In this document: piece after piece, positions 43,028 to 58,678 of the stretch
Position numbering within the stretch: position 1 is the first letter of the stretch
Layout: every line of letters begins with the position of its first letter
NCBI GenBank assembly: GCA_040905425.1
Contig: JBBDRO010000100.1
Coordinates: 63,124 to 127,123 of the forward strand
Source of the DNA: Gemmatimonadota bacterium
Lineage (GTDB): Bacteria > Gemmatimonadota > Gemmatimonadetes > Longimicrobiales > RSA9
Length of the DNA: 64,000 bases
Reading direction: 5' to 3'
The notes under the pieces: generated by a model
What the model was told of the DNA's origin: nothing
Database searches by the model: none
Seen by the model: the letters and a program-made list of their open reading frames with translations, nothing else
Made by a program: the position numbers and the translations under genes

Positions 43028-44059
43028 TCAAGGTGGCGGCTGTCCCGAGGGTGGCGGCGGTGGCGGCGGTGGTGGCGCTGTCCCGGGGTCCTCTCCCAAC
43101 CAGTAGGCGGGTCGATCGGGAAGCTCGCTGGCGCGCAGGCGCTCCAGCCGCTCGCGGTTGCGGCGCCGCCGCAGGTAGGTGAGCGCCACCACCAGCACGG
43201 CCAGGAAGGCCCACAGCACCACGCTCTGCGCCAGAAAGACCAGCCAGCCGTAGCGGCTCCGCACCCGCTCCAGCCAGAGCCGCTCGAACTGCGTGGAGGA
43301 GACAGCGTACGTGGCGCGCATGGCCTGCTCGAAGGAACCCGTGGCCCGCCAGCGCTCCAGGAACGGTCCGAAGCCGCTCCCCCCGCCCTGCTCCGCCAGG
43401 TAGCGGACGGCATCGGCGGCCAGGAGGTAGGCCACCCGGGCCTGGCTGGTCCCGCGCGGCCAGGCCAGCGTGAGCTCGTCCAGCGACGGGGCGCTGCCGG
43501 TCAGGAACGCCACCCTGAGCATCCATCCCGCCGCCGGATCCAGCTCGCCCGCGGCCCACGTGGCGTACCCCTCGGAGAACCAGCGCGGTACCGCCGCGCG
43601 GCCCACCCGACGCTGCAACCCCACGTGCGCCAGTTCGTGCTTGAGAATGCGGGCCAGCTCGTTCATGGCGGCCGTACGCGGCGCGTGCAGGGGCAGCACG
43701 ATGCGGCCCTCGAAGGGCAGCGCCACCCCCGCGCCCCACTCGGGGACCTGGCCGCCGGTCAACGCGTCGAAGGCCGCCTCGTCGGCCACCAGATGGATGT
43801 CCACCGTGTCGCCGCCCGGCCACCACCCCGCGGGGAAGCCGGGCAGCGGCAGGGCGTCCACCGCGCTCGCCAGCAGACGTTCGGCCAGTTCCCGCGCGGC
43901 GGCCGGCGCATACATGCGCATGCCGGGCCCGCGCAGCACGATGGTGGCGTCCTCCTGCCGGGCACCCGGTGCCGCGCGCCCGCCGAGGGGGGCAGCGGCG
44001 AAGAGCAGGAGAACGGCCGCGGCAACGACCCCCGTGCGGCGCGGACTACGCCTGCGCAC
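43028..44059 (-). CDS. membrane-anchored gluzincin-type (peptidase MA-like) metalloprotease
   Basis: Signal peptide; PEWGAGVA; KHELAH (HExxH); PRWFSEG; C-terminal TM followed by RRRR; overlaps the end of cheB. Confidence 0.75.
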   Translation of the reverse strand: MRRRSPRRTGVVAAAVLLLFAAAPLGGRAAPGARQEDATIVLRGPGMRMYAPAAARELAERLLASAVDALPLPGFPAGWWPGGDTVDIHLVADEAAFDALTGGQVPEWGAGVALPFEGRIVLPLHAPRTAAMNELARILKHELAHVGLQRRVGRAAVPRWFSEGYATWAAGELDPAAGWMLRVAFLTGSAPSLDELTLAWPRGTSQARVAYLLAADAVRYLAEQGGGSGFGPFLERWRATGSFEQAMRATYAVSSTQFERLWLERVRSRYGWLVFLAQSVVLWAFLAVLVVALTYLRRRRNRERLERLRASELPDRPAYWLGEDPGTAPPPPPPPPPSGQPPP

Positions 44060-44696
44060 GGCGGGCCAGGAGCCGCATCCTGGTGACCACGGCGGCGCCC
44101 AGTTCGCTCAGCGGCAGGACGAGCTGCGCGTGCTCCGCGGCGGCGCGCGGCATGCTGCCCATGGTGGCGCTGGCCTCGTCCTGCGCCACGGTCCAGCCCC
44201 CCGCCTCCCGGATGGCGCGCATGCCCTCCGCGCCATCCCTCCCCATGCCCGTCAGCACCACGCCCGCCCCCGCCGGACCGAAGTGGCTCGCCACGGCGTG
44301 GAACAACAGGTCGGCCGTGGGGCGTAGGCCGCCCACGGGGTCCCCGTCGAGCGCCGTGAAGACCACGCCGGCCGCCGTCCTGGCCAGACCCAGATGCGCA
44401 CCGCCCGGCGCCAGGTAGACGGTGCCGGAGCGGACAAGTTCTCCCGGCACGGCCTGGCGTACCGGGAGCGGCGTCAGGCCGTTCAGCCGGGCCGTGAGGG
44501 AGCGTGTAAAGAAGGCCGGGATGTGCTGGATGACGATCACGGCGGCGGGAAAATCACCGGGCAGCTCGGCGATCAGGCGGGCCAGTGCGGAGGGCCCACC
44601 GGTGGAGGCGGCCACGGCCACCGCCGCGACCGCCGGGGCCGATGCCGCCGGATCGGCATGCGGCGGCGACCCCCGGGTGGACTCAGAGTTCGACAT
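44046..44696 (-). CDS. cheB: CheB-type methylesterase, catalytic domain only (no receiver domain)
   Basis: Ser-His-Asp triad motifs AASTGGP, IQHIP and LTGMGRDGA; also APGG, AQDE and MPRAA. Confidence 0.9.
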   Translation of the reverse strand: MSNSESTRGSPPHADPAASAPAVAAVAVAASTGGPSALARLIAELPGDFPAAVIVIQHIPAFFTRSLTARLNGLTPLPVRQAVPGELVRSGTVYLAPGGAHLGLARTAAGVVFTALDGDPVGGLRPTADLLFHAVASHFGPAGAGVVLTGMGRDGAEGMRAIREAGGWTVAQDEASATMGSMPRAAAEHAQLVLPLSELGAAVVTRMRLLARRAQA

Positions 44697-45174
44697 CGGG
44701 CGCTCGCATGGAGCTTACCAGGAGGCGGCCGTCGGTCGTGTGCAGGAAGACCGAGCGGCCGTAGCCGCCGCCCACGTCCTTGGCCACGAGCGGGATGCGG
44801 ACAGCATCGAGCGCGCGCGTGGCGGCTGCCACATTGCGCTGTCCCAGGTTGCGGCGGTGCTCCTCCGCCACCGATTCGAACATGCTGGCCCCGCCAACCA
44901 GGCGGGCGCGCAGGCGGCCCGGGGCCGCGCCAGCCGTACGCATCTGGTCGATCAGGACCTGCACCGCTGTGGCGGCAAAGCGTCCCAGGGGCGTGGGGCG
45001 CCGTCCATCGGCGGGATCGGGCAGCATGGCGTGGGCCATCCCGCCCACACGGGCCTCCGGGTCCCACAGGGTGATGGCCACGCAGGATCCCAGACCCAGC
45101 GCACAGAGCACCTCCCCGCTACGCCCCACCTTCACCTCGCCGATGCGGACGGGGACGCGAATGGGCCGCGTCAT
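44683..45174 (-). CDS. cheD: chemoreceptor glutamine deamidase CheD
   Basis: LGLGSCVA, GGMAHAMLP, LVGGASMF, LGQRN, DVGGGYGR. Confidence 0.93.
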   Translation of the reverse strand: MTRPIRVPVRIGEVKVGRSGEVLCALGLGSCVAITLWDPEARVGGMAHAMLPDPADGRRPTPLGRFAATAVQVLIDQMRTAGAAPGRLRARLVGGASMFESVAEEHRRNLGQRNVAAATRALDAVRIPLVAKDVGGGYGRSVFLHTTDGRLLVSSMRAPDVEL

Positions 45175-46088
45175 GTACGGCGGTACACGCGTTCACGCGG
45201 GGCCACCGGGCTGAACAGTCCCGTGGCGCTACCGAAGAGGGCCTCCACCTTCCCCAGCACCAGGAATCCCCCTGGCGCCAGAGCCGCGTGAAGGCGGCGG
45301 AAGAGATCCTCCTGCACCCGCCGTTCGAAGTAGATGATCACGTTCCGGCAGAGGATGAGGTGCTGCTCGCGTGGGAAGGGATCGCGTAGCAGATCCAGCG
45401 GCCGGAAACGAACCCTGGCGTGCAGTTGCTCGTCGACCGTGCGTTGATCAGGGCCGCCGAACCAGCGCCGGCGCCGTCCCGCATCCAGATCACCCATGGC
45501 ATACTCGGCGTAGGTTCCGGAGGCGGCCGCGGCCAGCGCACCGCGGTCCACGTCGGTGGCCAGAATGCGGCAACGCTGCGGCTCCAGGCTGCCAGCACTC
45601 TCCTCCACGAGCATGGCCAGCGAATAGGCTTCCTCGCCCGCCGCGGTGCCCGCGCTCCACAGCCGTACCTCGCCCCGGACCACGGCCAGCTCCGGGACCA
45701 CCGCATCACGCAGGACCTTCCAGACCTCCGGATTGCGGAGAAACTTGCTCACGTTGATGGTCACGGCGTTCAGGAGCCGCTCGAGTTCCTCCGGCTGGCC
45801 CTCGAGCAACCGCTGGTAGGCGGCGTAATCGTGCACACCACAGGCACGCATGCGCACGGCCACGCGGCGCCGCATGCAGCGCTCCTTGTAGCTGGCGCAC
45901 GCCAGGCCGGTGCGGTTCTCCACGTAGCCCAGGAGGGCACCCAGCTCCGCCACTTCACGCTCGGTCAGCGGACCGTGCGCCAGCGGGAGGATGGCGTTCG
46001 GAGCGGCCCGGCGGTCCGCGGGCGGACGGACCACGCGGCCCGCCCGCGGGGGCGGCGTGGCGCCGTTGGCGCGCTCCTCAGCCGGCAT
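45171..46088 (-). CDS. cheR: chemotaxis methyltransferase CheR
   Basis: TINVSKFLRN, LWSAGTAAGEEAYS, ATDVD, ILCRNVIIYF, LAPGGFLVLG. Confidence 0.93.
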   Translation of the reverse strand: MPAEERANGATPPPRAGRVVRPPADRRAAPNAILPLAHGPLTEREVAELGALLGYVENRTGLACASYKERCMRRRVAVRMRACGVHDYAAYQRLLEGQPEELERLLNAVTINVSKFLRNPEVWKVLRDAVVPELAVVRGEVRLWSAGTAAGEEAYSLAMLVEESAGSLEPQRCRILATDVDRGALAAAASGTYAEYAMGDLDAGRRRRWFGGPDQRTVDEQLHARVRFRPLDLLRDPFPREQHLILCRNVIIYFERRVQEDLFRRLHAALAPGGFLVLGKVEALFGSATGLFSPVAPRERVYRRT

Positions 46089-47697
46089 GCTCCACGATCT
46101 CCAGATTGTTGCGCACCACGCGATTGTGCGGGTTGAGCTCCAGGGCGCGGGTCCAGTGGCGCACCGCCTCCTCCCGCTGCCGTCCCTTGTAGAGCACATT
46201 GCCCATCTTGGCGTGCAGGTCATCCCCCAGGTCGGGATCCAGCTCGGCGGCGCGCTGATAGTGCTCCAGGGCGTCCTCGTGGAGGCCGCGCCGATAGATC
46301 ACGTCCCCCAGGTTCTTGTGTGCCTGCGCCAGGCCGGGCTCTTCCTCTGAAGCGCGCCGATAACAGGCCTCCGCATGATCCAGGTTGCCACGCCGCTCGT
46401 GCACCAGCCCAGCCAGGAGGTGGACAGAGGCGGCATTGGGATGCGCCTCGACCGCCTCACCGGCCAGCGCGGCGGCACGGTCCAGGTCCCCGCCAAGCGC
46501 CGCAGCGAGCCCCGCGAAATGGTAGTACTGGGGAGAGGGCACCGCCGTGCCCAGCCGCCTGCGATACTCGGCATAGGCCTCGGCCGCTTCCGCGGGCCGC
46601 AGGGCATGGGTGAGCGTGAGGCCGCGTGCCAGCGCCACGGTCGGCGTGCCCGCCCGCAGCGTCTCCGCCTCATCCAGCACCAGGAGAGCGTCATCGAAGC
46701 GCTCCAGCGCGCGTAGGGAAACGGCCAGATTCACGAAGGCGGCGAACTGCGGGCCGTGATCCTCCAGCAGGGACTTGAGCTGCCGCACCGCGGCGCGGTG
46801 GCGGCCGTCGCGCATGGCGGACAGCGCCAGATGGAAGCGGGCGGAGAGATCGTGCGGTTCCAGTTCCAGCACCCGCCCGAACTCACGCTGCGCATCCTCC
46901 AGCATGCCTGCGCGGAAGAACGCGGTCCCCAGGTTGCGGCGCTCCGCCAACTCCGCCGCCTTGCCGCGGCCACCCTCCTTTTCCTTGCGGCGCCCCACCC
47001 GATGGCAGAATCCCGCCTGGATGAGGCCGAAGAGCGCCTGCCCCACGGTGAACTCCACCAGCCCGCTCTCGTCCACCAGATCCTGAACGCTGCGCTCCCC
47101 GTCCAGCAGCAGGACAATGCGCTGCTGCTCCGCGGTGAGTTCCACATCGGAGGTGAGCAAACGCTCACTCTCCACTTCGAAGACCAGATCCAGGGAGGGG
47201 ATCTTCTTCTCGATCAGGCTCCACTCGTCCACCCGGCGGGCGGCCTCCAGCAGGAGACTCTCCGGATTGATGGACACCAGGATGTCCGCCGAGTCGGGCT
47301 GCTCCCCCACCTCGAAGTAGAAGCTGCCGCGCGACCAGGTGAAGAGATGGTAGATGGCCTCTTCGATCTGCAGCCGGACGTAGCGCTCCAGATCCGCGCT
47401 GGTGATGTGGCCCTGCTCCACGAGCAGCTCTCCCACGCGGCGGTCAGGCTGCTGTGTCTGCAGCGCCAGTACCGCCTCGAGCTGCTCCTGCGTGAGGACG
47501 TCGTCGCGCACCAGGAGATCACCCAGGCGGTCCCGTCGGTTCACGACCTGTGCATACGTGATGCGGCCGGCTTCGAAGTAGATCTGACCGAAGCGCGAGC
47601 GATCCGTAACGGAAAGGCAACCGGTCTTCTGACCGAGCGCCAGGAGCTGGCACACGTCGGCCAGACTGGCCTCCTTCAGACTCCCCTTGATGGCCAT
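46078..47697 (-). CDS. DUF4388 / MshEN-like / wHTH-like / TPR protein
   Basis: MAIKGSL..SLADVCQLL..KTGCL, GSFYF and SLLLEAARRVDEW (DUF4388-type); internal RLGDLL...Q and RVGELL...Q motifs; multiple TPRs. Confidence 0.85.
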   Translation of the reverse strand: MAIKGSLKEASLADVCQLLALGQKTGCLSVTDRSRFGQIYFEAGRITYAQVVNRRDRLGDLLVRDDVLTQEQLEAVLALQTQQPDRRVGELLVEQGHITSADLERYVRLQIEEAIYHLFTWSRGSFYFEVGEQPDSADILVSINPESLLLEAARRVDEWSLIEKKIPSLDLVFEVESERLLTSDVELTAEQQRIVLLLDGERSVQDLVDESGLVEFTVGQALFGLIQAGFCHRVGRRKEKEGGRGKAAELAERRNLGTAFFRAGMLEDAQREFGRVLELEPHDLSARFHLALSAMRDGRHRAAVRQLKSLLEDHGPQFAAFVNLAVSLRALERFDDALLVLDEAETLRAGTPTVALARGLTLTHALRPAEAAEAYAEYRRRLGTAVPSPQYYHFAGLAAALGGDLDRAAALAGEAVEAHPNAASVHLLAGLVHERRGNLDHAEACYRRASEEEPGLAQAHKNLGDVIYRRGLHEDALEHYQRAAELDPDLGDDLHAKMGNVLYKGRQREEAVRHWTRALELNPHNRVVRNNLEIVEHAG

Positions 47698-47719
47698 CAG
47701 CCGCCTTCCTTCCGGCGCC

Positions 47720-49504
47720 TCATTCGCCCTCCTCCAGCGGTACGTCCTGATGGCCGGGCCAGTCCCAGAGCGCCTTTTCACGGCTCGTGAACCAGTGGTC
47801 CAGCGCCCCCCCCCGCCCCACCAGGGCGCCAGCTTCCCGCGGCGCGGGATCGGCGATGGGACGCAGACCCGCTGGCGCGGCCACCGGCTCCGTCCCGGAG
47901 GCCTCCTCATCCACGCTGCCGGAGGCGGTGAGTTCCACCACCAGCCCGGTCTCGAGGCGCCCACGGAGCCGATCCTCCAGGCCGTCGATCAAAGCCGGCG
48001 GGCCGGCGGCGCTGAAGAGCAGACGGGCCCCCGCACGACGTAGATGGTCGAAGAGGTGGAAGAGCTCCTCCTGGGCGCCCTCGGTGTCCGCCAACTCGTC
48101 CACGTCGGGCATGACCAGTACCCCCACCCGGCGCAGCCGGGCGCGCCAGGCCTCTACACCGTCGTGACCGAGCGCGTCCACCAGTTCGGAAGCAAATTCA
48201 CGGCCTGGCAGCCAGGCCACGGTGAGCCCCTTCTGCAATTCCGCGATCTCGCGTGCCACGGCGGCCAGCACACGCTCGGCCAGTTCCCGGTCCCCGTGCA
48301 GGAAGTAGGGCACGTACCGGTCTCCGGTCCCCTGGGCCACCGCCGCACCGGCGCGCACGGCAAGATGGTTGGCGGGCAACGGCAACTCGGCCAACGTGGG
48401 CCCGGGTGGCGGCCGGGGCACGGGACGGGTGCGCGCCTGCACGGCCACCAGCAGTCCTTCCGCCTCCGTCACCCGCGCCGGGTCGCGCAGCACGTCGGTG
48501 CGCTCCAGCTCCGGGGCGTCACCCTCCGCTTCACGAATGAGGCGGGCCACGGTGCGCAGCCGCTCCACGCGTGACGCGAACCCCGTCAGGAACGCCTCCA
48601 CCGCGGCCTCGGCCGGCGGGCTCGCCAACGCCTCCTCAAGCAGGCGGGTGCGGAAGCCCTCCCCCTCCCAGCGGAGGATGGCCTCGGCCAGTTTGGCCTC
48701 GCTGCCGCCCGGCGAGACCACCTGACCGATCGTGCCGGTGATCTCCGTCAGGAAGGCGCCGAACTCGTCGGGACCGCGCCGGTCCAGGGCCAGGCCGAGG
48801 AGACGACCCGCCTCCTCCATGCTCACCTGGCGGCCCTCCAGTTCCTGGATGGCCAGGATCCGGTTGAGTGCGCCCTGCAGCTCCCGCACGTTCGCGAAGG
48901 CGCCGCGCGCCAGGGCCTCCGTCACCCCATCGCCGAGGGCCTGCCCGCGCTCCTCCGCCTTGCGGCGCACGATGGCCGCGCGGGTCTCCATGTCAGGCGG
49001 TGCCAGATCCGCTATAAGCCCCCCGGAGAAGCGGCTGAGGAGCCGATCGTCCAGTTCGTCGATCTCCGTGGGCGGACGGTCGCTGGCCAGCACCACCTGC
49101 CCGCCGCGCGACGCCATGCCGTCCCACGCCCGCAGCAACTCCTCCTGAACGGCTCGCCGTCCCGCCAGGAACTGGATATCGTCGAGCAGGAGGAGATCCG
49201 CGGCGTGGATCCGCTCCCGGAAGGCATCGCGCTGCCCGGACCGGATGGCACTCATCACGCCCTCCACCAGATGCTCCATGGTGTCGTAGGTGATGCGCAG
49301 GTCCGGATGGATGGTGCGCGTATGCTGCCCGATGGCCATGACCAGGTGCGTCTTGCCCAGCCCCGAGGCACTGTAGAGGAAGAGCGGGTTGTAGGCGGAG
49401 CCGGGCGTGTCGGCAACGCGCCGCGCTGCCGCAGCCGCGAGACGATTGGACGTCCCGACAATGAAGCTCTCGAAGGTGAGACGAGGGTCCAGCTCCAGCG
49501 ACAT
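47720..49504 (-). CDS. DnaA/Hda-like protein with two tandem AAA+ domains and no DNA-binding domain IV
   Basis: TFESFIVG.SN, YNPLFLYSASGLGKTHL, LLLLDDIQFL, QEEL, SDRPP, RLLSRF, NVRELQGAL; a second degenerate copy N.LA...YVPYFLHG...QEELFHLFD...LEDRLRGRL. Confidence 0.88.
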   Translation of the reverse strand: MSLELDPRLTFESFIVGTSNRLAAAAARRVADTPGSAYNPLFLYSASGLGKTHLVMAIGQHTRTIHPDLRITYDTMEHLVEGVMSAIRSGQRDAFRERIHAADLLLLDDIQFLAGRRAVQEELLRAWDGMASRGGQVVLASDRPPTEIDELDDRLLSRFSGGLIADLAPPDMETRAAIVRRKAEERGQALGDGVTEALARGAFANVRELQGALNRILAIQELEGRQVSMEEAGRLLGLALDRRGPDEFGAFLTEITGTIGQVVSPGGSEAKLAEAILRWEGEGFRTRLLEEALASPPAEAAVEAFLTGFASRVERLRTVARLIREAEGDAPELERTDVLRDPARVTEAEGLLVAVQARTRPVPRPPPGPTLAELPLPANHLAVRAGAAVAQGTGDRYVPYFLHGDRELAERVLAAVAREIAELQKGLTVAWLPGREFASELVDALGHDGVEAWRARLRRVGVLVMPDVDELADTEGAQEELFHLFDHLRRAGARLLFSAAGPPALIDGLEDRLRGRLETGLVVELTASGSVDEEASGTEPVAAPAGLRPIADPAPREAGALVGRGGALDHWFTSREKALWDWPGHQDVPLEEGE

Positions 49505-49511
49505 TGCTCTC

Positions 49512-50141
49512 CTAGGTAGTGGCTGCGCCCGTCGGCGGCGCTTCGATCTTCTGACGGAAGCGGCGCGACAGGCTCTGCAACGTGAGCTGGCTGACCGCCT
49601 TCAGGGTGTCGAAGACGCCGTCCCCGGTGAGCGCCGCGGCCGGGAACGCCGGTACGTCACGAAAGTTCAACGTGTCATCCAGGTCGGCCACGCTCATGAT
49701 CCCCGGCAGGTCCCGCTTGTTGTACTGCAGGACCATGGGGAAGTCTTCCAGCTCCACGTTTTCCTCCAGGAGATTCTCGTGGAGATTGCGCAGACTGTCC
49801 ACGTTCTCCTCCATCTTCTCCCGCTGCGAATCGGCCACGAAGACCACGCCGTCGGCCCCGCGCAGTACCAGCTTGCGGGTGGCGTTGTAGTACACCTGAC
49901 CGGGCACCGTGTACAGTTGTACGCGCGTCCGGAACCCTGAGATCGTGCCCAGGTCGAGCGGCAGGAAATCGAAGAAGAGCGTGCGGTCTGTCTCCGTGGC
50001 CAGGGAGACCATGGGTCCCTTCCGCTCGTCCGGCACGTACGCGTGCACGTACTGGAGGTTGCTCGTCTTGCCGGACCGCCCCGGCCCGTAATAGACAATC
50101 TTGCAGGTGATCTCACGGGTGGAATAATTGACCAGGGACAT
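49512..50141 (-). CDS. mglA: MglA-family small Ras-like GTPase
   Basis: KIVYYGPGRSGKTSNL, TETDRTLFFDFLP (catalytic Arg), YTVPGQ, NKRDL; closely resembles my recollection of Myxococcus/Thermus MglA. Confidence 0.95.
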   Translation of the reverse strand: MSLVNYSTREITCKIVYYGPGRSGKTSNLQYVHAYVPDERKGPMVSLATETDRTLFFDFLPLDLGTISGFRTRVQLYTVPGQVYYNATRKLVLRGADGVVFVADSQREKMEENVDSLRNLHENLLEENVELEDFPMVLQYNKRDLPGIMSVADLDDTLNFRDVPAFPAAALTGDGVFDTLKAVSQLTLQSLSRRFRQKIEAPPTGAATT

Positions 50142-50171
50142 GGTTCGATTCCTGGGAGGGGGAGGCGTTCG

Positions 50172-50657
50172 TCAATCCGGGTCCGACTCGAAGACCCGCT
50201 GGATCCCCGCTTCGAGATCTCGCTCGAAACTGGCCTGATCCGTGGATCCCAGGTCGGCGCCGAATATGGGCAATGCGGCCAGGTCGGCCGCCAGACGGTC
50301 GAAGAAGAACTGTACCAGACCGAGCGTGGAGCCGCCGTCGAAGATCGTCACCACGATCAATTCCTCTACCGGAGTCTTCACGGGTGCCAGGAAGAGCTGC
50401 CGCTCCCTGCCCGCATGGTAGAGATGGGTCCACCGCCCCGCGCCCGAAATCTCGGCGAGCATACGGGAGGAGGCGTGTGCCGCCGCGGCCAGCGATGCCA
50501 CGTTCACCACTTCGTAGCTGCTGGCAAACCCGTGCTGCGCCAGCACCTGCCCCGAGTGGTTCACCAGCAGCGCCAGGCGGACCCGCGCCTCGCGTACGAA
50601 GCCATGCATGGGCTCGCGCACCGCACCCATGATGGCGGGCAGTTCGTCACTTCTCAT
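50172..50657 (-). CDS. mglB: Roadblock/LC7 protein, MglB-like (likely the cognate GAP)
   Basis: ALLVNHSGQVLA, VASLAAA, STLGLV Roadblock pattern; lies directly upstream of mglA. Confidence 0.75.
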   Translation of the reverse strand: MRSDELPAIMGAVREPMHGFVREARVRLALLVNHSGQVLAQHGFASSYEVVNVASLAAAAHASSRMLAEISGAGRWTHLYHAGRERQLFLAPVKTPVEELIVVTIFDGGSTLGLVQFFFDRLAADLAALPIFGADLGSTDQASFERDLEAGIQRVFESDPD

Positions 50658-51004
50658 TGCAGCCCCGCCGCCGCGCGCTCGGCCTCAACGCGGATCATAC
50701 CCAGCTGAGCGTCGGATTCGGCGATGGCCACCACCACGAGCGGACCCGCGCCCGCCATCACCACATGGCCGCCCGCGGCCTCGAGCTGTACGGCCGTGAG
50801 CGCACCCATGGAACCGGCGGCCGTGGCATGGCCGGCCCGTTGGAAGAGGGAAGCGGCCAGGGCCGCCAGCGGGCCACCGTCCACGCCGGCGGCCAGTTCG
50901 GCGGTCACCGGGACACCCGTCTCGGCCTCCACCACCATGGCGCCCCGTACACCCTGTACACGGGTGAGGGCGGCAACAGCCGCATCGAACGCGTCGGGAT
51001 TCAT
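50654..51004 (-). CDS. Roadblock/LC7 domain protein
   Basis: VQGVRGAMVV...GVPV, LAALAASL, AQLGMIRVE; ATGA overlaps on both sides. Confidence 0.85.
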   Translation of the reverse strand: MNPDAFDAAVAALTRVQGVRGAMVVEAETGVPVTAELAAGVDGGPLAALAASLFQRAGHATAAGSMGALTAVQLEAAGGHVVMAGAGPLVVVAIAESDAQLGMIRVEAERAAAGLQ

Positions 51005-51978
51005 GCGTAGCTCTCCAGGAAGCGGCTGGCCAGTTCGCGCGCCCGCGCGGCCCCGCGCATCACCCATCCCACGGGCGCATCGCGCCGGGCCGCCAGGACC
51101 ACCACGGTATCACCCGGAGCCGGCGCCAGGTGCAGCAGGGCCACCTCCGTGTGCAGCAGGATGCCCTCCCATGCGCCCAGGCTCAGGTGCTCGGCCGTGC
51201 GAGCCGCTTCCTCCACGGCGTCGCCCAGACCGGCGCCCAGCCCTTCCGCCGAGGCATCGGCCGGCTCCCGCAGCGTGCCCGCCAGGATGAGGCCCTGCGC
51301 ATCCAGCAGCAGCGCGCCGAGCACCGGCCCGCGCATCACGGCGTCGAAGAGGCGCGTGGGGTCCTCGGCCAGGACCGCCGCGTGCGCCGCGTGCGCCGCG
51401 TGCGCCGCCTCCGCCGCCTCCACCGCCGCCGCGTCGACGGGCGGAGACGGCCGCGGGGCGGGAGCCACCTCGGCCGCCGCGGCCCCGGAGGGATGGCCGT
51501 CGGCGCCATGGCCCGCGGTCGTGGTGCCACCGAACGGATCCGGCGCGGCCTTGACCTTGCGCGCCTCCTGACGCTGCCGCAGCAACTGCAGCGCCTCCCG
51601 CACCGCGGGATCGGCCGGCCGGGTCAGCGCGGCCGCTTCCAGATGCTGCCGCGAACGCTCCAACTCGCCCGTCTCAAGGTAACAGAAACCAAGACCGCGC
51701 AGCGCATCGAAGTTGCCGGGGTCCAGGCGCAGCACCATGGACCACTCGTCCGCGGCGCGCTCCCGATCCCCCGCTTCCAGGTAGAGCAGCGCCAGCAGCC
51801 CGTGACCCTCCACGTTCATGGGGTGCGCTTCCAACCCGCGCAGGCAGAGATTGAGTGCGGCGTCGCGCTGCCCCTGGCGCCGGTAGGCGCGGGCCAGCGG
51901 CAGGAACGCCAGCGAGCCGGGGTCACTGGCCACCTCCTGGCTCCAGCGTTGCAGATCCGCCGTCACGGGTCGCGTCAT
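51001..51978 (-). CDS. TPR + Roadblock/LC7 fusion protein
   Basis: N-terminal TPRs (FLPLARAYRRQG, VLRLDP); Ala/Pro/His linker; C-terminal VLGALLLDAQGLILAG...PVGWV Roadblock domain. Confidence 0.82.
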   Translation of the reverse strand: MTRPVTADLQRWSQEVASDPGSLAFLPLARAYRRQGQRDAALNLCLRGLEAHPMNVEGHGLLALLYLEAGDRERAADEWSMVLRLDPGNFDALRGLGFCYLETGELERSRQHLEAAALTRPADPAVREALQLLRQRQEARKVKAAPDPFGGTTTAGHGADGHPSGAAAAEVAPAPRPSPPVDAAAVEAAEAAHAAHAAHAAVLAEDPTRLFDAVMRGPVLGALLLDAQGLILAGTLREPADASAEGLGAGLGDAVEEAARTAEHLSLGAWEGILLHTEVALLHLAPAPGDTVVVLAARRDAPVGWVMRGAARARELASRFLESYA

Positions 51979-52009
51979 TGCCACTCCTCGTTGCCGCCAT
52001 GCAGGAAGC

Positions 52010-53134
52010 TCATCGGGCCCCGCTCTCGACCACCCGCGTCAGCACGCGCAGGGCGGCCAACCCCTCATCCACGACCTTCCGCTCATCACCATCGGGCATC
52101 AGGCGCAGGTAGGTGTCCCATGCGCGCGCGCCGCGCTCCAGGTCCCCGGTGCGCACGGCCGAGAAGCCCAGGCGGAAGTGCCCTTCGGTGGAGAGCGGAT
52201 CCAGCCCCACGGCCCGTGCGTAAGCCTCCGTTGCCGCGCGCATGCGCCGCTGCGCCTCCAGGGCCCGACCCGCCAGCAGGGCAATCTCCGCGTGCTCGGG
52301 GTATGCGGTCTCGAGTTCCGCGGCCAGTTTCTGCGCCTCCTCCACACGGCCGTCGGCCAGGTGTTGCTCGGCCCGCGCCATGGCCTCCCGGAGCTCACCT
52401 TCCGGTACGTGGCTGCGCTGCTCCTGCACCTGCAGCACACCCGTGCTCACCAGTCCGTAGATCGTCTTGGCCACGTCGAACGCGCTGCGTCCCAGGTCCG
52501 CCGCGATCTGCCGGATATCCCGGTGCGCGTCGATTTCCGCGAGCACCTCCCACTCCTCCGTGCGCAGGTCGAGCGGCGCCGCCTCGCGCTCGGCGGCCGG
52601 GGCCAGCACCGGCACCGCCTCGGGACCGGGCACCTTGGATTCCAGCCGCGTCCATTCATCGATCCGCCGGGCACCCTCCATGAGCAGCGACTCCACCCGC
52701 ACCTGGGCCAGCAGGCGGCCCTGACCGATGCCGGCACGCTCCTCGAAGCGGAAGTACCCCTCGTCCCAGCCCATCAGTTCGTAGACGGTCTCCTCCATCT
52801 GGAAGCGGAGTTGCCGCTCCAGTTCTTCCTCCGTGATGCTCCCCATCTCCAGGAGGATCTCGGCCAGTCGGCGCGTGGGGTCGGTGCGCTGCAGTTCGAG
52901 CGCGCGATCCAACTCCCGCTGCGTGAGTCGACCGGCCCGGATGAGCAGCTGCCCCAGCCGCCGCGGCGAGCGCCGCCGTACCGCGAACACGATGGCGCCC
53001 CGACTGAAGTGGACGATGGCCTCGTCGTTCAAACGATCCGAGCGAACCGTCAGCACGCCGGTCTTGTGCGCCAGTTCGAGGAGCTGGAGCACGTCCTGGA
53101 TGCTGAGTTCCTCGAGGGGCCCCTCGATGGCCAC
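52010..53134 (-). CDS. DUF4388 / MshEN-like / wHTH-like / TPR protein
   Basis: GTG start; AIEGPLEELSIQDVLQLL..KTGVL; RLGQLLIRAG...Q; GYFRF; SLLMEGARRIDEW; C-terminal TPRs. Confidence 0.85.
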   Translation of the reverse strand: MAIEGPLEELSIQDVLQLLELAHKTGVLTVRSDRLNDEAIVHFSRGAIVFAVRRRSPRRLGQLLIRAGRLTQRELDRALELQRTDPTRRLAEILLEMGSITEEELERQLRFQMEETVYELMGWDEGYFRFEERAGIGQGRLLAQVRVESLLMEGARRIDEWTRLESKVPGPEAVPVLAPAAEREAAPLDLRTEEWEVLAEIDAHRDIRQIAADLGRSAFDVAKTIYGLVSTGVLQVQEQRSHVPEGELREAMARAEQHLADGRVEEAQKLAAELETAYPEHAEIALLAGRALEAQRRMRAATEAYARAVGLDPLSTEGHFRLGFSAVRTGDLERGARAWDTYLRLMPDGDERKVVDEGLAALRVLTRVVESGAR

Positions 53135-53147
53135 GCGCCCTCCCCGC

Positions 53148-55841
53148 CTACGTGGCCGCGACCGGCGCCGCGCCCGGCGCCGCGCTCTGGAGCCGCTCCA
53201 GCGCAGCGCTGGCGTCCGCGTTGCCGGGGTCGAAGCCGAGGGCGCGCCGATAGGCCACGCGCGCCTTGCCGTGCATGCCGGCATCCTCCAGCACCGCCCC
53301 CAGGCGAACCAGACCCTGGAGGTGGTAGGGATCCACCGTGAGGAGATCCACCAAGGCGGCGATGGCCTCGCGGTGGTGCCCGCGCCCGCGCTCGACCTCC
53401 GCCAGCCCGAGCGCGGCCTCACCGTAGCTGGGCAGGACCGCCAGCGCCACGCGGTACTCCGCCGCCGCCGCCGCCGCGTCCCCCCGCCGCGTCAGCACCC
53501 GTGCCAGAGCCGTGCGCGCCGCCGGCGCGTCCCCGCCACGCTCCAGAGCGTCACGCAACGCCCGCTCGGCGCGGGCCGTTTCGCCGGCCTCCAGGGCGGC
53601 GCGACCGAGCTGCGTGAGCAGGCCGGGATTGGCCGGTCCGGTGTCCACGGCCTCCTCCAGGACCAGCATGGCCCGGCCGTGGTCGCCCACCTGGGTCAGT
53701 CCCTCCGCCAGCGTGCGCAGCGCCACCACGTCACCCGGGAACAGCTCGGTGAGTCGCTCGGCCGCCTCCACCGCTTCCCGCGGCCTGTCGAGCTGGAGCA
53801 GCGAGCGGGCGGCGCCGAGCAACGCCCTGCCGAGGGCGGCCTCGCCCTCGTCGTCCTCGTCGCTCGCCGTACCACCTCGCGCCACCTCGGCCAGGGCGGC
53901 CTCGAAACGCTCCACCGCCTCACCCGCCGCGCCGCGGCGCAGGAAAGCCTCACCCTGCAGAAGGAGGCCCTGCACCCGGGGGCCGCCCTCCTGGATCATG
54001 TGCAGGGCCTCACGCTGCACCGCCTCCAGGTCTCCCCGGTCGAGCGCGGCCTGCGCCGCGGCCAGCCGGCTCCGGCCGCCCGCGGGGGAAGCGGCCTGGC
54101 CCGAACCCTCCCGGGCAAAGACCGAATCCAGCTCGCCCGCATCAGGCACGAAGGCCTCGATGGGCTGCCCGGGGCGGACCTCCTCCGCCGCGTCCAGCTC
54201 GGGCGCCAGCACGCTCGTCTCCTCGTACTGCAGGTCGATGAGCAGCCGGTGGCGCGCGGGGGGGATGAAGGGGCTCTTCTCCAGGGCGTGCCGGGTCTCC
54301 CGCAGCGCACCCTCGTAGTCCCCCAGTGCGGACAGGGCGAACGCCAGGTTGTAGCGTGCCTCGGCCAGGTCGGGGTCGAGCTCTACCGCGCGTACGAGAG
54401 CATCGCGCGCTCCGGAGGCATCGCCACCCTCCATGAGCGCGGCGCCCAGCCCGGCCCAGGCGGGGGCGGCGCCGTCATCGGCCTGCAGGGCCACGCGAAA
54501 GGTCTCGACCGCCTCGCCATGGCGGCCGGCGCGTTGCAGCAGGAGCGCCAGGTTGCGGGCCACGTCGGCCGTGGCCCGTCCGCCCTCGAGTGCTCGCCGC
54601 AGCAGTTGCTCGGCCGGCTGCGGCCGCCCCTGGTGCAGCTCCGCGACGGCCAGGTTGTTCAGGACCAGGACGTAACTACCGTCCAGTTCGAGCCCGCGCC
54701 GGTAGGCGGCCGCGGCACCGTCCAGATCCCCCTGCTGGTGCCGCGCCACGCCAAGCTCGTTCCACAGCTTGGGAGAATCAGCCTGCTGCCGCGTGAGCGC
54801 CTCGTAGAGACTGACGGCTTCCGCGTCCCCCCGCAGCAGCAGCATCTCCGCCTGGGCCTGCTGCACCAGTTGAGCGTCCTCCCCCCTTTCCGTGGCCAGG
54901 CGGAACTCCCGCAGCGCCTCGTCGAAAAGCGCCTTCTGCCGGAAGGCAATGCCCAGATTGTAGTGGGCCAGCGCCGCGTTCTCGGCCACGGCGGGTCCCT
55001 CGCCACGCTCGCCCACCAGCTCCTGATACCGGGCGTTGCTGTGGCTGTCCAGGGACAGATTGGTCTCGGCGCGGGACAGTGACGGGTTGAGCTCGGACGC
55101 ACGGGCCGCAGCGCTGCCCGCCTGTTCCTCCATGCCCAGGTCACCGTAAACGAAGGCCAGGAGGTGATGCGCCTCCGCCAGCGACGGCTGGAGCTGGACC
55201 GCCATCTCCAGCGGTCCCCGCGCCTCGGCGCTTCGTCCCTGCTGGTACTTCACCTCCCCCATGAGGAGGTGTGCGCGGGCGTTCGAAGCGTCCAGCGCCG
55301 CCGCGTTGCCCAGCGCCACCAGCGCCTCGTCCGGACTGCCCCGCCGCAGCTCGGCGCGCGCCAGCATGAGGTAGACGGCGGCGTCGCGCGGACGACCCGT
55401 CTGGACGGCACGCCACTCACGCACCGCCGCCTCGGCGTCCCCCGAATGGTAGTAGGCGCGCGCGAGCCGCTCCCGGGCCACGAGGTCATCGGCGTCGCGA
55501 GCCAGCGCGGCGCGGGCATCGGCCACCAGCCGCTCGAAGTAGCCGGTGCCGAAGAAGACGATGCGCAGATTGCGCTCCGCCACCTGCATGCGGGGATCCA
55601 GTTCGAGGGCGCGCTCGAACTGTTCCGCGGCATCCCCGAAGAGTCCCTTGTGATAGTAGACCACGCCCAGGTTGTTGTGGGCGTTCGGGTCATCCTGCTT
55701 GATACGGCGGGCCAGGCCGCGGAGCAACTCGGCGTCCCGCTCCGAACGCGGCTGTGCGCCCTGGGGCCGGCTGCGCGGACCGTCGCCTCGATCCCGCCAG
55801 GGAAGCGTGGGCTGCTGCGGCTCGGGCCGGGGCGTACTCAC
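53148..55841 (-). CDS. large cytoplasmic TPR repeat protein (897 aa)
   Basis: Many canonical TPRs (AHNNLGVVYY...ALELDP, AHYNLGIAF, LWNELGV, ARYNLAF); no signal peptide; ATG overlaps the cheC stop. Confidence 0.9.
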   Translation of the reverse strand: MSTPRPEPQQPTLPWRDRGDGPRSRPQGAQPRSERDAELLRGLARRIKQDDPNAHNNLGVVYYHKGLFGDAAEQFERALELDPRMQVAERNLRIVFFGTGYFERLVADARAALARDADDLVARERLARAYYHSGDAEAAVREWRAVQTGRPRDAAVYLMLARAELRRGSPDEALVALGNAAALDASNARAHLLMGEVKYQQGRSAEARGPLEMAVQLQPSLAEAHHLLAFVYGDLGMEEQAGSAAARASELNPSLSRAETNLSLDSHSNARYQELVGERGEGPAVAENAALAHYNLGIAFRQKALFDEALREFRLATERGEDAQLVQQAQAEMLLLRGDAEAVSLYEALTRQQADSPKLWNELGVARHQQGDLDGAAAAYRRGLELDGSYVLVLNNLAVAELHQGRPQPAEQLLRRALEGGRATADVARNLALLLQRAGRHGEAVETFRVALQADDGAAPAWAGLGAALMEGGDASGARDALVRAVELDPDLAEARYNLAFALSALGDYEGALRETRHALEKSPFIPPARHRLLIDLQYEETSVLAPELDAAEEVRPGQPIEAFVPDAGELDSVFAREGSGQAASPAGGRSRLAAAQAALDRGDLEAVQREALHMIQEGGPRVQGLLLQGEAFLRRGAAGEAVERFEAALAEVARGGTASDEDDEGEAALGRALLGAARSLLQLDRPREAVEAAERLTELFPGDVVALRTLAEGLTQVGDHGRAMLVLEEAVDTGPANPGLLTQLGRAALEAGETARAERALRDALERGGDAPAARTALARVLTRRGDAAAAAAEYRVALAVLPSYGEAALGLAEVERGRGHHREAIAALVDLLTVDPYHLQGLVRLGAVLEDAGMHGKARVAYRRALGFDPGNADASAALERLQSAAPGAAPVAAT

Positions 55842-56455
55842 ACGAGCCTCAGCGCCCGGAGCATGGCCTCCAGCGACGCGTCATCCGGAATGAGCAGGAA
55901 GTGGGCGCCCATCTCCGTTTTACCGTCCAGCATGAGGTCCGTATTCATGACGAAGACAAAGTCCTGGTCCGCACCGAAATTCACATAGCTGGTGGACAGC
56001 ACCGCGCCCACCATGTCCATGGCAAAGGAGGGCACGGACATGATGAGCAGCATGCCCATGAACTCGGAGAGCGCGTTCAGGTAGGCGCCCACGATGATGT
56101 TGCCCACCTCTTCCAGGATGGACTGCTCGGCCGGTCCGAGATCACGTGGGAACTCCAGGCCCTTGCGGCCTCCCATGATCTCCACCAGTACGGCGGCGGT
56201 GCCAGCGGGGAAAAGCTGGAGGGTTCGTCCGGTGACGTCCCCCAGGACCTTCATCACCACGGCGGAGACGGGCTCCTGGGGGTCGCCCATGGCCGAGGAA
56301 ACATCCTCGAGTGCCACTACCTTCACCTCGGGCACTGACACGGTGATGGCCCGCGTGGTCATGTCCGACAACGCCGTGGCCGCGTGCCCCGCGCCGATAT
56401 TGGCGATCTCGCGGAGCGCGGAGTACTGGATCTCGGTGAGGCCGCGCACGTCCAT
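55838..56455 (-). CDS. cheC: CheC-family CheY-P phosphatase
   Basis: Two ExxN active-site motifs: LREIANIGAGHAATALS and LEEVGNII...YLNAL. Confidence 0.92.
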   Translation of the reverse strand: MDVRGLTEIQYSALREIANIGAGHAATALSDMTTRAITVSVPEVKVVALEDVSSAMGDPQEPVSAVVMKVLGDVTGRTLQLFPAGTAAVLVEIMGGRKGLEFPRDLGPAEQSILEEVGNIIVGAYLNALSEFMGMLLIMSVPSFAMDMVGAVLSTSYVNFGADQDFVFVMNTDLMLDGKTEMGAHFLLIPDDASLEAMLRALRLV

Positions 56456-56459
56456 TCGA

Positions 56460-58271
56460 TCAGCTCACACTCAGGGGGTCCAGCACCAGGGCGGGCCTGC
56501 CATCCGCCAGCAGCGTGGCGCCGGAGAAGAGCGGCAGCGCCCCCACGCCCGGATGGAAGGCCTTCACGAGGATCTGCTCGCGGCGTACGATCTCGTCCAC
56601 GCCCAACGCAAAGCGACGTTCGCCCGACTCGGCCACCACCGCCGCCCGCTCGCCCCCCTCCGGATCCACCCCCAGGACGGCGCGCATGCGGATGAGCCGG
56701 ACCGGCTCGTCACGCAGTACGAGCCATTCCCCCGTGCCGTCCACGCGCACCGAAGTGAGGGCAAAATCCACCGCCTCCGATACGTGCGTGAGCGGCACGG
56801 CGTAGATCTCCTGGCCCACCCGCACCTGCAGGGCGGGCGCCACGGCCAGCGTGAGCGGCAGCCGCATCACGAAGTCGGTGCCCTGCCCCGTCCGGGTCCG
56901 CATGTCGATAGCGCCGCCGAGCGCGCGCACACGGTTCACCACCGCGTCCAGCCCCACCCCACGGCCTGAGACCTCCGTCACCGCGGCGGCCGTGGAGAAG
57001 CCGGGGTGGCTGAGGATCCGAAAGAGCTCGTCGTCTTCCAGCACGCCGTCGAAATCGGCGGGCAGGATGCCACGCTCCTGTGCGCGTTCCACCACCGTCT
57101 CCTGATGCACGCCGCCGCCATCGTCCTGCAGGGTGATCCGCACGCTCGTGCGCTCGCGCTCGGCGGCCAGGCGGATCTGCCCGCGGGGAACCTTGCCAGC
57201 GGCACGGCGCGCCTCGTTGCCCTCCAGGCCGTGGTCTACGGCGTTGCGCAGGAGATGGACGATGGGATCCACGATCTCGTCGAGGATGGCACGGTCGAGT
57301 TCGATGTCCTGCCCCTCCATGACCAGTTCCACGTCCTTGCCGAGCGAGCGGGCCGCGTCCCGCACCACGCGGGGGAAGCGCTGGAAAACGTCGGCCACCG
57401 GGACCATGCGCATCGAGAGCACTGCGTGCTGCAGCTCGGACGCCACGGTACTGATGCGGGAAGCGACGTCCCCCATCCCGTTCACGGCGGCTACGTCCAG
57501 CTCTCCGGCATACTCCGCCAGCCGGCCCTGCAGCACGGCCAGTTCCGCCACGCGCTCGGCCACCTCGTCGAGGCGCCGCTGATCCACGCGCACCTGGGTA
57601 GCGGTGGCCCGAGCCGGACCGGACCGCCCGGCCGCCTGCGAGTCCCCCCGCTCGACCGTGGCGCTGGCCACCTCCCCCGCCGCGCGCAGCGCCACCGTGA
57701 CGGCCTCCGCGTCGGCATCCTCCTCGAGCAGAACCAGAAAACGTCCGTCGAAGGCCTCGTCGAACTCCGCGGGTAGCGTACCTACGACTCCTCCCACCGC
57801 GCGCGCCGCGACCACCGCGAGCAGCGCGCGCGCGGCTTTGATGGGCGCGTCCTCTTCCAGGCGCACGCGCACGGCGGGCACGCCGGCCGGGCGGGCCGGT
57901 CCGGCACGGTCCCGCCCCGCGGTCCCCGCGGGTGCGGCCGCGGCGGCCACGTCGGGTGACGGATCCAGCGCGGCGGCCTGGAGCCGGTCGGCCGCGGCCA
58001 GCAAGGCGTCCACGAGTTCCGGGTCCACCTCCAGCGTGCCAGCACGCACCGCGTCCAAGCGGTCCTCGAGCGCGTGTGCCTGCTCGGTCACCAGGGTGTA
58101 GCCCATGCTCGCGGCCATCCCCTTCAGGGTGTGGGCGGCACGGAACGCCGCGGCCACCGCCTGGCGCGCCTCCTCCCCGCCCGCTTCCAGGGCCAGGATG
58201 CTCTGGGTCAGCCGCTGCAGATGCTCTTCGGCCTCGGCTGCGTAGAGGGCGCGGAAGCGGTCGACATCCAT
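56460..58271 (-). CDS. cheA: chemotaxis histidine kinase CheA
   Basis: HPt FRAAHTLKG; RMVP; HLLRNAVDHG; DDGGG; GFST; SGRGVGLD; C-terminal CheW domain. Confidence 0.96.
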   Translation of the reverse strand: MDVDRFRALYAAEAEEHLQRLTQSILALEAGGEEARQAVAAAFRAAHTLKGMAASMGYTLVTEQAHALEDRLDAVRAGTLEVDPELVDALLAAADRLQAAALDPSPDVAAAAAPAGTAGRDRAGPARPAGVPAVRVRLEEDAPIKAARALLAVVAARAVGGVVGTLPAEFDEAFDGRFLVLLEEDADAEAVTVALRAAGEVASATVERGDSQAAGRSGPARATATQVRVDQRRLDEVAERVAELAVLQGRLAEYAGELDVAAVNGMGDVASRISTVASELQHAVLSMRMVPVADVFQRFPRVVRDAARSLGKDVELVMEGQDIELDRAILDEIVDPIVHLLRNAVDHGLEGNEARRAAGKVPRGQIRLAAERERTSVRITLQDDGGGVHQETVVERAQERGILPADFDGVLEDDELFRILSHPGFSTAAAVTEVSGRGVGLDAVVNRVRALGGAIDMRTRTGQGTDFVMRLPLTLAVAPALQVRVGQEIYAVPLTHVSEAVDFALTSVRVDGTGEWLVLRDEPVRLIRMRAVLGVDPEGGERAAVVAESGERRFALGVDEIVRREQILVKAFHPGVGALPLFSGATLLADGRPALVLDPLSVS

Positions 58272-58281
58272 GGAGGTCGGT

Positions 58282-58644
58282 TCAGCCCAGCACGCGCTGT
58301 ACGGCTTCGAGCACGCGGGAAGGCTGGAACGGTTTGACCACGAAGTCGCGCGCCCCCGCCTGGATAGCTTCGATGACCAGCGCCTGCTGTCCCATGGCGC
58401 TGCACATGAGGATACGGGCTTTGGGGAACTCCTTGACGATCGCGCGCACGGCATCGATACCGCCCATGTCCGGCATCACGATGTCCATGGTGACCAGATC
58501 CGGTTTCAACTCGCGGTATTGTTCCACCGCCTCGGAGCCGGTCTGCGCTTCACCGACCACCTCGAAGCCCGCCTGCTTCAGGATCTCTCCCAGCATGGTG
58601 CGCATGAAGAGTGCGTCATCGCAGATCAGAACGGTTCGTGCCAT
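58282..58644 (-). CDS. cheY: single-domain response regulator CheY
   Basis: ICDDALFMR, TMDIVMP, MCSAMGQ, FVVKPF (F1/Dif-type CheY pattern). Confidence 0.93.
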   Translation of the reverse strand: MARTVLICDDALFMRTMLGEILKQAGFEVVGEAQTGSEAVEQYRELKPDLVTMDIVMPDMGGIDAVRAIVKEFPKARILMCSAMGQQALVIEAIQAGARDFVVKPFQPSRVLEAVQRVLG

Positions 58645-58678
58645 GGTTCCTCGATGGGATGGTTCGTGCGGCGGCGCC

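Follow-up and report, generated by a model that had tools for sequence, protein, structure and literature searches.

In oligomers of the replication initiator DnaA, one protomer completes the ATP site of the next. Hda is a DnaA-derived AAA+ protein that lacks a DNA-binding domain; its arginine finger acts on the ATP site of a partner, and it carries an N-terminal peptide that binds the beta clamp. AAA+ pairs with one inactive module are also known, among them the D1/D2 tandems of NSF or p97 and the pseudo-ATPase subunits of ORC or the clamp loaders. Here we describe a gene at 47720..49504 of a 64,000-nucleotide stretch of DNA (the window) from a Gemmatimonadota bacterium of the Longimicrobiales (NCBI GenBank assembly GCA_040905425.1, contig JBBDRO010000100.1, positions 63,124 to 127,123 of the forward strand). 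It was recognized as an open reading frame whose translation has two matches to the Pfam family Bac_DnaA. This tandem ATPase gene encodes two DnaA domain III modules without a DNA-recognition domain and stands in an operon of polarity and chemosensory genes, which suggests that a replication ATPase has been reused as a signalling part. Coordinates are those of the window unless a locus handle precedes them, and every window feature given lies on the minus strand.

Compared with DnaA (structures 8bv3/8btg, 2z4r and 1l8q/2hcb/3r8f), module 1 of the protein amounts to a whole domain III in which every nucleotide motif is present, and module 2 to a domain III core. The protein differs from DnaA in lacking domains I, II and IV, in having domain III duplicated around a foreign helical module, and in its operon. 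Hda consists of one module, about 230 aa long, whereas there are two modules here and the context is not one of replication; matches to Hda structures in the PDB reached only E 8e-7. As in the NSF, p97, ORC and clamp-loader pairs, a dead module may have been kept as a structural or arginine-donating partner. Those pairs, however, belong to other AAA+ clades and form rings, and in the tandem ATPase the dead state is limited to some lineages; Foldseek comparisons with p97 and Rix7 were weak (TM 0.22-0.32, rmsd (root-mean-square deviation) 15-18). The polarity module of Myxococcus xanthus (MglA/MglB and Frz) resembles the gene neighbourhood, which combines a close MglA relative with Roadblock/MglB-like and Che genes in one string, but here all of these genes belong to a single operon.

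In a 2014 survey of small GTPases in prokaryotes (PMC4316618), Wuichet and Sogaard-Andersen pointed out PATAN genes in the vicinity of group 1 mglA, and the searched part of the text mentions no DnaA-like ATPase. A literature search combining a DnaA-like protein with MglA, PATAN or Gemmatimonadota, covering sources other than subscription journals, returned no paper on the tandem ATPase. The graded decay of module 2, the C-terminal peptide, the one-module forms and the match of the linker to a repeat common to long repeat-plus-DnaA proteins, all described below, are new.

Domain layout and relation to DnaA

The tandem ATPase has 594 aa and starts with the ATG at 49504. The stop codon of mglA (TAG, 49512-49514) lies 7 nt before it, as had been read from the sequence. 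Bac_DnaA matched residues 5-165 over profile positions 1-161 of 162 (whole-protein E 7.5e-82). When the C-terminal piece was scanned separately, the same family matched residues 377-524 over positions 14-162 of 162 (E 1.8e-27, 96.9 bits). Neither DnaA_N nor Bac_DnaA_C was found in the protein at E<=0.01, and residues 241-390 and 530-594 had no Pfam match with the threshold relaxed to E<=10. Residue 5 of the protein corresponds to the first profile position of Bac_DnaA and to position 103 in the NCBIfam DnaA model TIGR00362, which puts the start of the protein at domain III. The Pfam scan thus bore out a sequence-only reading of this DNA, in which the protein was said to begin at domain III and to hold two DnaA-type ATPase domains with neither the N-terminal nor the DNA-binding domain of DnaA. 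The motifs quoted there were likewise all in place, in the first copy SASGLGKT (residues 45-52), LLLLDD (104-109), RLLSRF (from 154) and NVRELQGAL (from 205), and further on HGDRELAE (from 403), VLVMPDVD (from 462), QEELFHLFD (from 478), DRLRGRL (from 511) and HWFTSREK (from 570).

An AlphaFold2 model was built on 54 relatives. Its mean pLDDT (predicted local distance difference test) was 87.9 and its pTM (predicted TM-score) 0.51, so that the single domains are confident and their mutual placement is uncertain. Module 1 (residues 1-240, 48785..49504) is a complete domain III with core and lid, matching TIGR00362 over positions 103-336. It is 43% identical to the corresponding part of the genome's own DnaA in a gapless alignment of 233 aa. 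Modelled with a pLDDT of 92-98, it superposes on domain III of Bacillus subtilis DnaA (8bv3) with an rmsd of 1.5 over 233 columns (TMt 0.95). Its Walker A, SASGLGKTH (residues 45-53, 49346..49372), has G48, G50, K51 and H53 invariant in 54 aligned sequences, and D108 and D109 of the Walker B, LLLLDDI (residues 104-110, 49175..49195), are invariant in the same set. In the box VII or arginine-finger region, LDDRLLSRF (residues 151-159, 49028..49054), R154 is invariant and R158 is present in at least 90% of the rows; RLLSRF aligns with RLVSRF of the genome's own DnaA. The sensor II region, ANVRELQ (residues 204-210, 48875..48895), aligns with NVRELEG of DnaA and has an invariant R207. Module 1 thus has a complete DnaA-type ATP site.

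Module 1 is followed by a disordered connector (residues 241-267, 48704..48784; pLDDT below 50 for 241-265), a helical module (residues 268-360, 48425..48703; pLDDT 93-98 in the full model) and module 2 (residues 377-530, 47915..48376). Residues 536-565 are again disordered in the model, and they precede a C-terminal peptide (residues 566-594, 47723..47809; ...HWFTSREKALWDWPGHQDVPLEEGE) in which W582 is invariant and E576, K577 and P583 are present in at least 90% of the rows.

The DnaA model TIGR00362 has 437 positions and scored 353.7 bits against a cut-off of 343.9. The cut-off was passed solely by summing the two domain III stretches, and this accounts for database labels of the type "chromosomal replication initiator protein". 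Relatives also appear as "DnaA/Hda family protein" and "DnaA ATPase domain-containing protein". The Hda models stayed far below their cut-offs (TIGR03420, 114.1 against 194.8 bits; NF005982, 43.9 against 268).

A canonical dnaA encoding DnaA_N, Bac_DnaA and Bac_DnaA_C is present on another contig (C19), as had been anticipated, with dnaN directly downstream. When the whole assembly was searched in six frames, this gene gave the sole match to Bac_DnaA_C. At the loci examined, the tandem ATPase gene was never seen beside dnaA or dnaN and was found in a Che/MglA/PATAN context. Because domains I, II and IV are absent and a complete dnaA-dnaN pair exists elsewhere, the tandem ATPase is not the replication initiator.

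Among the best 120 relatives in a word-indexed search, 119 covered 87-100% of the query at 50-62% identity, and their stated hosts were Gemmatimonadota or Longimicrobiales. Look-alike clusters in the ESM Atlas (590-663 aa) were likewise from Gemmatimonadota, and the family has been seen only in this phylum. Residues 241-594 served as a query against 301 genomes of the phylum, and the best 150 places (E<=2.7e-35) cover the linker and module 2. In five families (f7, f9, f10, f11 and f12; 45 genomes searched) nearly every genome gave one weak match (E 1e-14 to 1e-23), with none in one genome and two in another; these single matches are of the kind that an ordinary dnaA gives. This survey and the tally of MglA matches given below include four unpublished genomes (G057, G097, G157 and G182), two of which contributed loci L025 and L030; none of the claims depends on these genomes alone.

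We placed the modules in a tree of 89 domain III sequences (quick search; supports from the Shimodaira-Hasegawa-like approximate likelihood ratio test, SH-aLRT, with no bootstrap). Module 1 formed one clade (99) and module 2 another (100), and the inner order of each follows the host families. The tandem is therefore old within this class and is no recent copy of the resident dnaA. All ordinary DnaA sequences grouped apart from both modules (92), with the phylum's own DnaA (98) among them. The end branches of the window protein were 1.23 for module 2 and 0.32 for module 1.

These data bear on a possible link to replication, in which the tandem ATPase would pair with genuine DnaA, stimulating ATP hydrolysis as Hda does or capping the oligomer, and so couple the polarity or chemosensory state to initiation. 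Such pairing would fit the close identity of module 1 to the resident domain III with its intact box VII and sensor II, the arginine-finger residues kept in both modules, and the TIGR00362 score above its cut-off. Against it stand the low Hda scores, the start at domain III, which leaves no room for an N-terminal clamp-binding peptide, and a gene position that is always in the Che/MglA/PATAN string and never beside dnaA or dnaN. In addition, the tandem ATPase has been lost in several lineages, and the clade of module 1 (SH-aLRT 99) is outside all sampled DnaA and not beside the DnaA of the phylum. We regard a replication role as unlikely.

The polarity and chemosensory operon

The neighbouring genes form the string CheW-CheA-CheC-TPR-PATAN-Roadblock(x3)-MglA-tandem ATPase-PATAN/TPR-CheR-CheD-CheB. 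Directly upstream of the tandem ATPase gene, mglA (49512..50141) encodes 209 aa, of which residues 1-193 match the Myxococcus MglA structure 6h17 at E 3e-76. Directly downstream, a gene at 46078..47694 encodes a PATAN(DUF4388)-TPR protein of about 538 aa (DUF4388 E 1.1e-39, plus TPR families). The window protein thus has domain III, the helical module and the C-terminal consensus SREKxxWDWP...EE that define the family, and its gene is directly upstream of a PATAN-TPR gene. The remaining genes were assigned with Pfam. Upstream of mglA are three Roadblock/LC7 (MglB-like) genes (50172-50657, 50654-51067 and, combined with TPR, 51001-51984), with Robl_LC7 E-values, in the order listed, of 7.5e-9, 1.5e-5 and 7.5e-4, the third under the Pfam cut-off. 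Beyond these are a second PATAN(DUF4388)-TPR gene (52010-53422), which we call the upstream paralogue, a large TPR gene (53148-55841), and genes for CheC/CheX (55838-56455), CheA (56460-58454) and CheW (58626-59171). On the other side, the PATAN-TPR gene is followed by genes for CheR (45171-46223), CheD (44683-45174) and CheB (44046-44696), in an order that is conserved, and for an MA-type peptidase (43028-44059). Despite the presence of CheA, CheW, CheR, CheB, CheD and CheC, no methyl-accepting chemoreceptor or receiver (CheY) domain was found among the 15 Pfam-scanned genes of the string (43028-59171).

The proposed link to mglA was confirmed in other genomes. Among 29 loci of relatives, mglA was directly upstream in 27, and the other two end at a contig edge, so that all 27 uncut loci agree. 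A PATAN-TPR gene was directly downstream in 28 of the 29, the last being cut by a contig end. At 14 of 23 loci the start of the tandem ATPase gene overlaps the mglA stop by 4 nt and at two by 1 nt; a gap of 0-14 nt was found at the other seven. Over 20 kb, the mgl/PATAN/che string, which begins with the large TPR gene and ends with cheB, is preserved at 15 of 18 loci, and 14 of these 15 match all genes or all but one (L041 lacks matches to four). The upstream PATAN-TPR gene and the large TPR gene were in the same order in 14 of the 18. CheC/CheX, CheA and CheW were mapped in the window alone and were not among the queries of this 20-kb comparison.

Three loci of family f2 have the tandem ATPase and PATAN-TPR genes alone; neither mglA nor any che gene is found in the surrounding 20 kb. 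One of these pairs sits between the genes for isoleucyl-tRNA synthetase (IleRS) and an MA peptidase, which are the flanks found in the window; the family f2 pair is therefore a trimmed operon. At this position a 379-aa protein that matches no Pfam family (L034:11225-12364, genome G249) is encoded between IleRS and the tandem ATPase, in place of the che and mgl genes. Since the pair stays together where mglA has been lost, the downstream PATAN-TPR protein is by gene order a tighter partner of the tandem ATPase than MglA is.

The length of the PATAN-TPR protein was also examined across 30 tabulated loci, in two of which (L056 and L061) the best PATAN-TPR match is the upstream paralogue. It was 536-572 aa in 24 of the 25 loci that encode the tandem ATPase and hold a PATAN-TPR gene, and the 25th (L046) is frame-shifted. 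In three loci that have lost the tandem ATPase gene it was 425, 429 and 476 aa. This co-variation would fit a contact of the tandem ATPase with the last TPRs, and the acidic C-terminal peptide would be an obvious candidate for making it. The helical insertion of the PATAN domain in the protein encoded at 46078-47694 includes the stretches RLGDLLVRDDVLTQEQLEAVLALQ and RVGELLVEQGHITSADLERYVRLQ, which we take to resemble an MshEN-type motif for binding cyclic di-GMP.

Most genomes that bear the operon gave two MglA-like matches, and genomes without the tandem ATPase often gave one, which was weaker (E about 1e-60). This pattern suggests that another MglA paralogue is encoded elsewhere than in the operon.

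Decay of module 2 and the parts that stay fixed

In the window protein, module 2 consists of the alpha/beta core of domain III, and the lid is missing. Its identity is 30% with the DnaA of the same genome and 26% with module 1. By profile the second copy is DnaA-like (Bac_DnaA E 1.8e-27), as had been claimed, although only as a core. In place of the GxxGxGK[ST] of relatives, its Walker A reads LHGDRELAERV (residues 402-412, 48269..48301). Its Walker B reads VLVMPDV (residues 462-468, 48101..48121), where 33 of 54 aligned rows have D[DE] and the others have DG or DN, DG being found in many close relatives. Sensor I has also been lost. Module 2 is thus a pseudo-ATPase in this genome, and it still folds confidently in the model (pLDDT 90-98). 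In contigs from three further runs of the same study, no difference was listed in the decayed Walker A (48269-48301), and over the whole gene these contigs showed substitutions only and no indel. The decay is therefore no assembly slip.

Among relatives, the module 2 Walker A, G-x(0-2)-GK[ST], is kept in 42 of the 54 rows. One further row has GKT with the upstream glycine gone, and the remaining 11, including the window protein, have no Walker A. These 11 belong to the window's own order and to family f2. Members of about 650 aa in families f4, f5 and f8 keep the module 2 lid, with a sensor-II-like SVR, and most members of this size keep the Walker B, the lid and a sensor-II-like arginine. The lid is absent in the window's family (4 of 4 loci) and in two others. 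The sequence-only reading had described one active and one pseudo-ATPase domain. This describes the window protein correctly, but not the family; the dead module 2 is a local decay at the end of a gradient, and a pairing of one active with one dead module is not the family design.

Twelve further loci were chosen in which an mglA orthologue is present and the match to the tandem ATPase is weak. Five hold divergent tandems, three a one-module form, and three have the PATAN-TPR gene straight after mglA; one has nothing recognizable. The one-module form consists of module 1 and the helical module followed directly by the C-terminal peptide. This peptide, with the consensus SREKxxWDWP...EE, can be recognized in every architecture; in one of the three one-module forms it has diverged further. 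The parts of the family, as judged from these alignments, are a DnaA domain III, one W-EGY helical module of about 95 residues (described in the next section), an optional second domain III, a disordered stretch and the C-terminal peptide. Module 2 evolves fast and is dispensable, and module 1, the helical module and the tail form the core. At two loci, L043 (G198) and L046 (G127), a frame shift in the linker or module 2 splits the gene, through either an assembly error or gene decay.

One element of module 2 has not decayed. In the box VII region, EDRLRGRLE (residues 510-518, 47951..47977), R512 and R516 are invariant in all 54 rows, and box VII is kept despite the dead ATP site in the same module. 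The invariance of these arginines fits a dead domain that supplies an arginine finger, a step that, taken alone, we hold to be less likely than not.

The state of module 2 raises the question of whether the protein in this genome is a decaying relic, heading for loss and doing little. The absence of the Walker A, Walker B, sensor I and lid, the long branch of 1.23, and the loss of module 2 or of the whole gene in relatives would all be expected of such a relic. The reading frame is open, however, module 1 and the C-terminal peptide are fully conserved, module 2 is modelled with high confidence, and the sequence is stable across the contigs of four runs, with substitutions only. A relic is thus very improbable.

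The two intact modules of most family members could polymerize head to tail, and a nucleoid-matrix ATPase can be imagined on this basis. It would assemble on DNA in an ATP-dependent, sequence-independent way, and the chromosome would serve as a surface that positions the chemosensory and polarity machinery. In fold and motifs module 1 is a DnaA domain III, and the structures 3r8f and 8btg show, by their titles, this domain bound to single-stranded DNA. Nevertheless, no DNA-binding domain was detected in the protein, and the one dead ATP site of the window protein should block open-ended polymerization. We consider assembly on the nucleoid improbable as well.

The helical module and a proposed polarity switch

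The segment between the two ATPase modules had been taken for a helical linker, which understates it. When residues 262-372 were folded alone with 28 relatives, they gave a pLDDT of 91 and a pTM of 0.77; the module is a domain of its own and one unit of an unannotated helical repeat of about 97 aa. Foldseek found no match to it in the PDB at E<=0.001. The best VIA-align match was the spectrin/EzrA-like structure 4uy3 (Z 6.1, 100 aligned residues, rmsd 3.3), a Z within the chance range for helical bundles. Three-helix repeats of the EzrA/spectrin type are thus its best structural resemblance, with no sequence relation, and one relative of the repeat family (P0287) has a precomputed EzrA Pfam match.

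A profile of the helical module found 491 proteins at E<=0.001, 306 of them at E<=1e-10, among 1.84 billion representative proteins. Of the best 150 of the 491, 38 have 3-25 tandem copies, and the longest of them reaches 3143 aa. Successive copies are spaced about 97-100 residues apart and span nearly the whole profile, and the repeats in these 38 proteins match no Pfam family. The repeat motif is W..EGY..LE ... L.DPd..AE (examples are P0122-P0140 and L162:8959-13182, on a contig from a Thermoplasmata archaeon). Named hosts are a Thermoplasmata archaeon, Candidatus Wallbacteria and Methylacidiphilaceae. Two of the 38 proteins carry DUF835 and three have KaiC-like ATPase matches, one of them weak; a search of the literature on DUF835 and KaiC, again in sources other than subscription journals, gave nothing on the helical repeat.

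In seven of the 38 multi-copy proteins the repeats are followed by Bac_DnaA but by no Bac_DnaA_C, and many of the seven end in zinc ribbons. This repeat-plus-DnaA group (P0125, P0134, P0136, P0139, P0165, P0288 and others) has at least 15 members of 1084-1653 aa. They share with the tandem ATPase the helical repeat and a DnaA domain III without domain IV, and differ in having 6-8 repeats before a single ATPase module, often followed by the zinc ribbons. One such gene could be placed, on a 37.8-kb contig titled Thermoplasmata archaeon, where it lies among housekeeping genes; no mglA or PATAN gene is near it at this single locus. Five ATPase modules of the group form a clade (99) that groups with canonical DnaA, nearest to a Bacillota DnaA. 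A tree constrained to group them with module 1 of the Gemmatimonadota was rejected (approximately unbiased test, p-AU 0.0095), the constrained group having been chosen after a first tree. The repeat and DnaA domain III were therefore joined at least twice.

Two candidates were set aside. A PATAN-like N-terminus in the long repeat-plus-DnaA proteins is unsupported (no Pfam match; profile-profile E 0.51, probability 0.1). A metagenome-assembled genome labelled Thermoplasmatales (G301, L143) has an ordinary, bacterial-type DnaA-like frame of 455 aa and no repeat protein; the short contig with this frame (L160, G301:C270) is probably a foreign bacterial contig in the bin.

Taking operon and protein together, we propose that the tandem ATPase serves the Che-MglA/MglB-PATAN-TPR polarity operon as a subunit that works as an ATP-controlled switch or scaffold, a reading to which we give a probability of roughly 0.6. 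Module 1 would bind and hydrolyse ATP. Module 2, nucleotide-free in this genome, would complete or cap the ATP site of module 1 through its box VII arginines, as the next protomer does in DnaA. The dead site of module 2 would cap growth and so yield a closed pseudo-dimer rather than an open filament. The nucleotide state might then gate docking of the helical module and the C-terminal peptide on the adjacent PATAN-TPR protein and perhaps on MglA. The output would probably be a pole-specific, pilus-type behaviour; for comparison, work on Synechocystis describes PATAN as the output domain that binds the pilus motor proteins PilB1/PilC (10.1101/2021.06.11.447907).

Several points weigh against the proposed switch or scaffold. 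The gene persists in the three family f2 loci that have no mglA within 20 kb, so MglA need not be a direct partner. Conversely, it is gone from three of the 12 weak-match loci, which keep mglA and the rest of the operon. The co-variation in PATAN-TPR length comes from two lineages only (genera g41 and g79) and is a weak indication. How the two modules are arranged towards each other is uncertain in the model (pTM 0.51). Finally, the known AAA+ proteins of the initiator clade act on DNA, and module 1 may bind DNA as well.

The graded natural series found among relatives, from two live modules through one live and one dead module and a single module to none, indicates which parts are essential. 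The tandem ATPases also pass a curated DnaA threshold and are named as chromosomal replication initiators in databases, where they can mislead origin prediction and gene counts. The helical repeat is joined to a DnaA-type ATPase in a second protein family, one member of which is on an archaeal contig; the pairing may therefore be functional and not accidental. A bolder and rather doubtful extension is that DnaA domain III and the W-EGY repeat make up a recurrent two-part machine, built separately by two unrelated lineages, in which the ATPase drives the assembly or remodelling of long spectrin-like rods. One lineage would be the Gemmatimonadota, with the machine wired to MglA/PATAN, and the other the makers of the long repeat-plus-DnaA proteins. 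If true, a replication initiator would have given rise to a new class of cytoskeletal or scaffold ATPases in prokaryotes, with the window protein as its minimal form of one repeat, one live motor and one dead motor. The known role of DnaA domain III, both in DnaA and in its regulator Hda, is that of an engine of replication; the present family would show it as a fixed part of an operon for polarity and chemosensing in much of a phylum that has been little studied.

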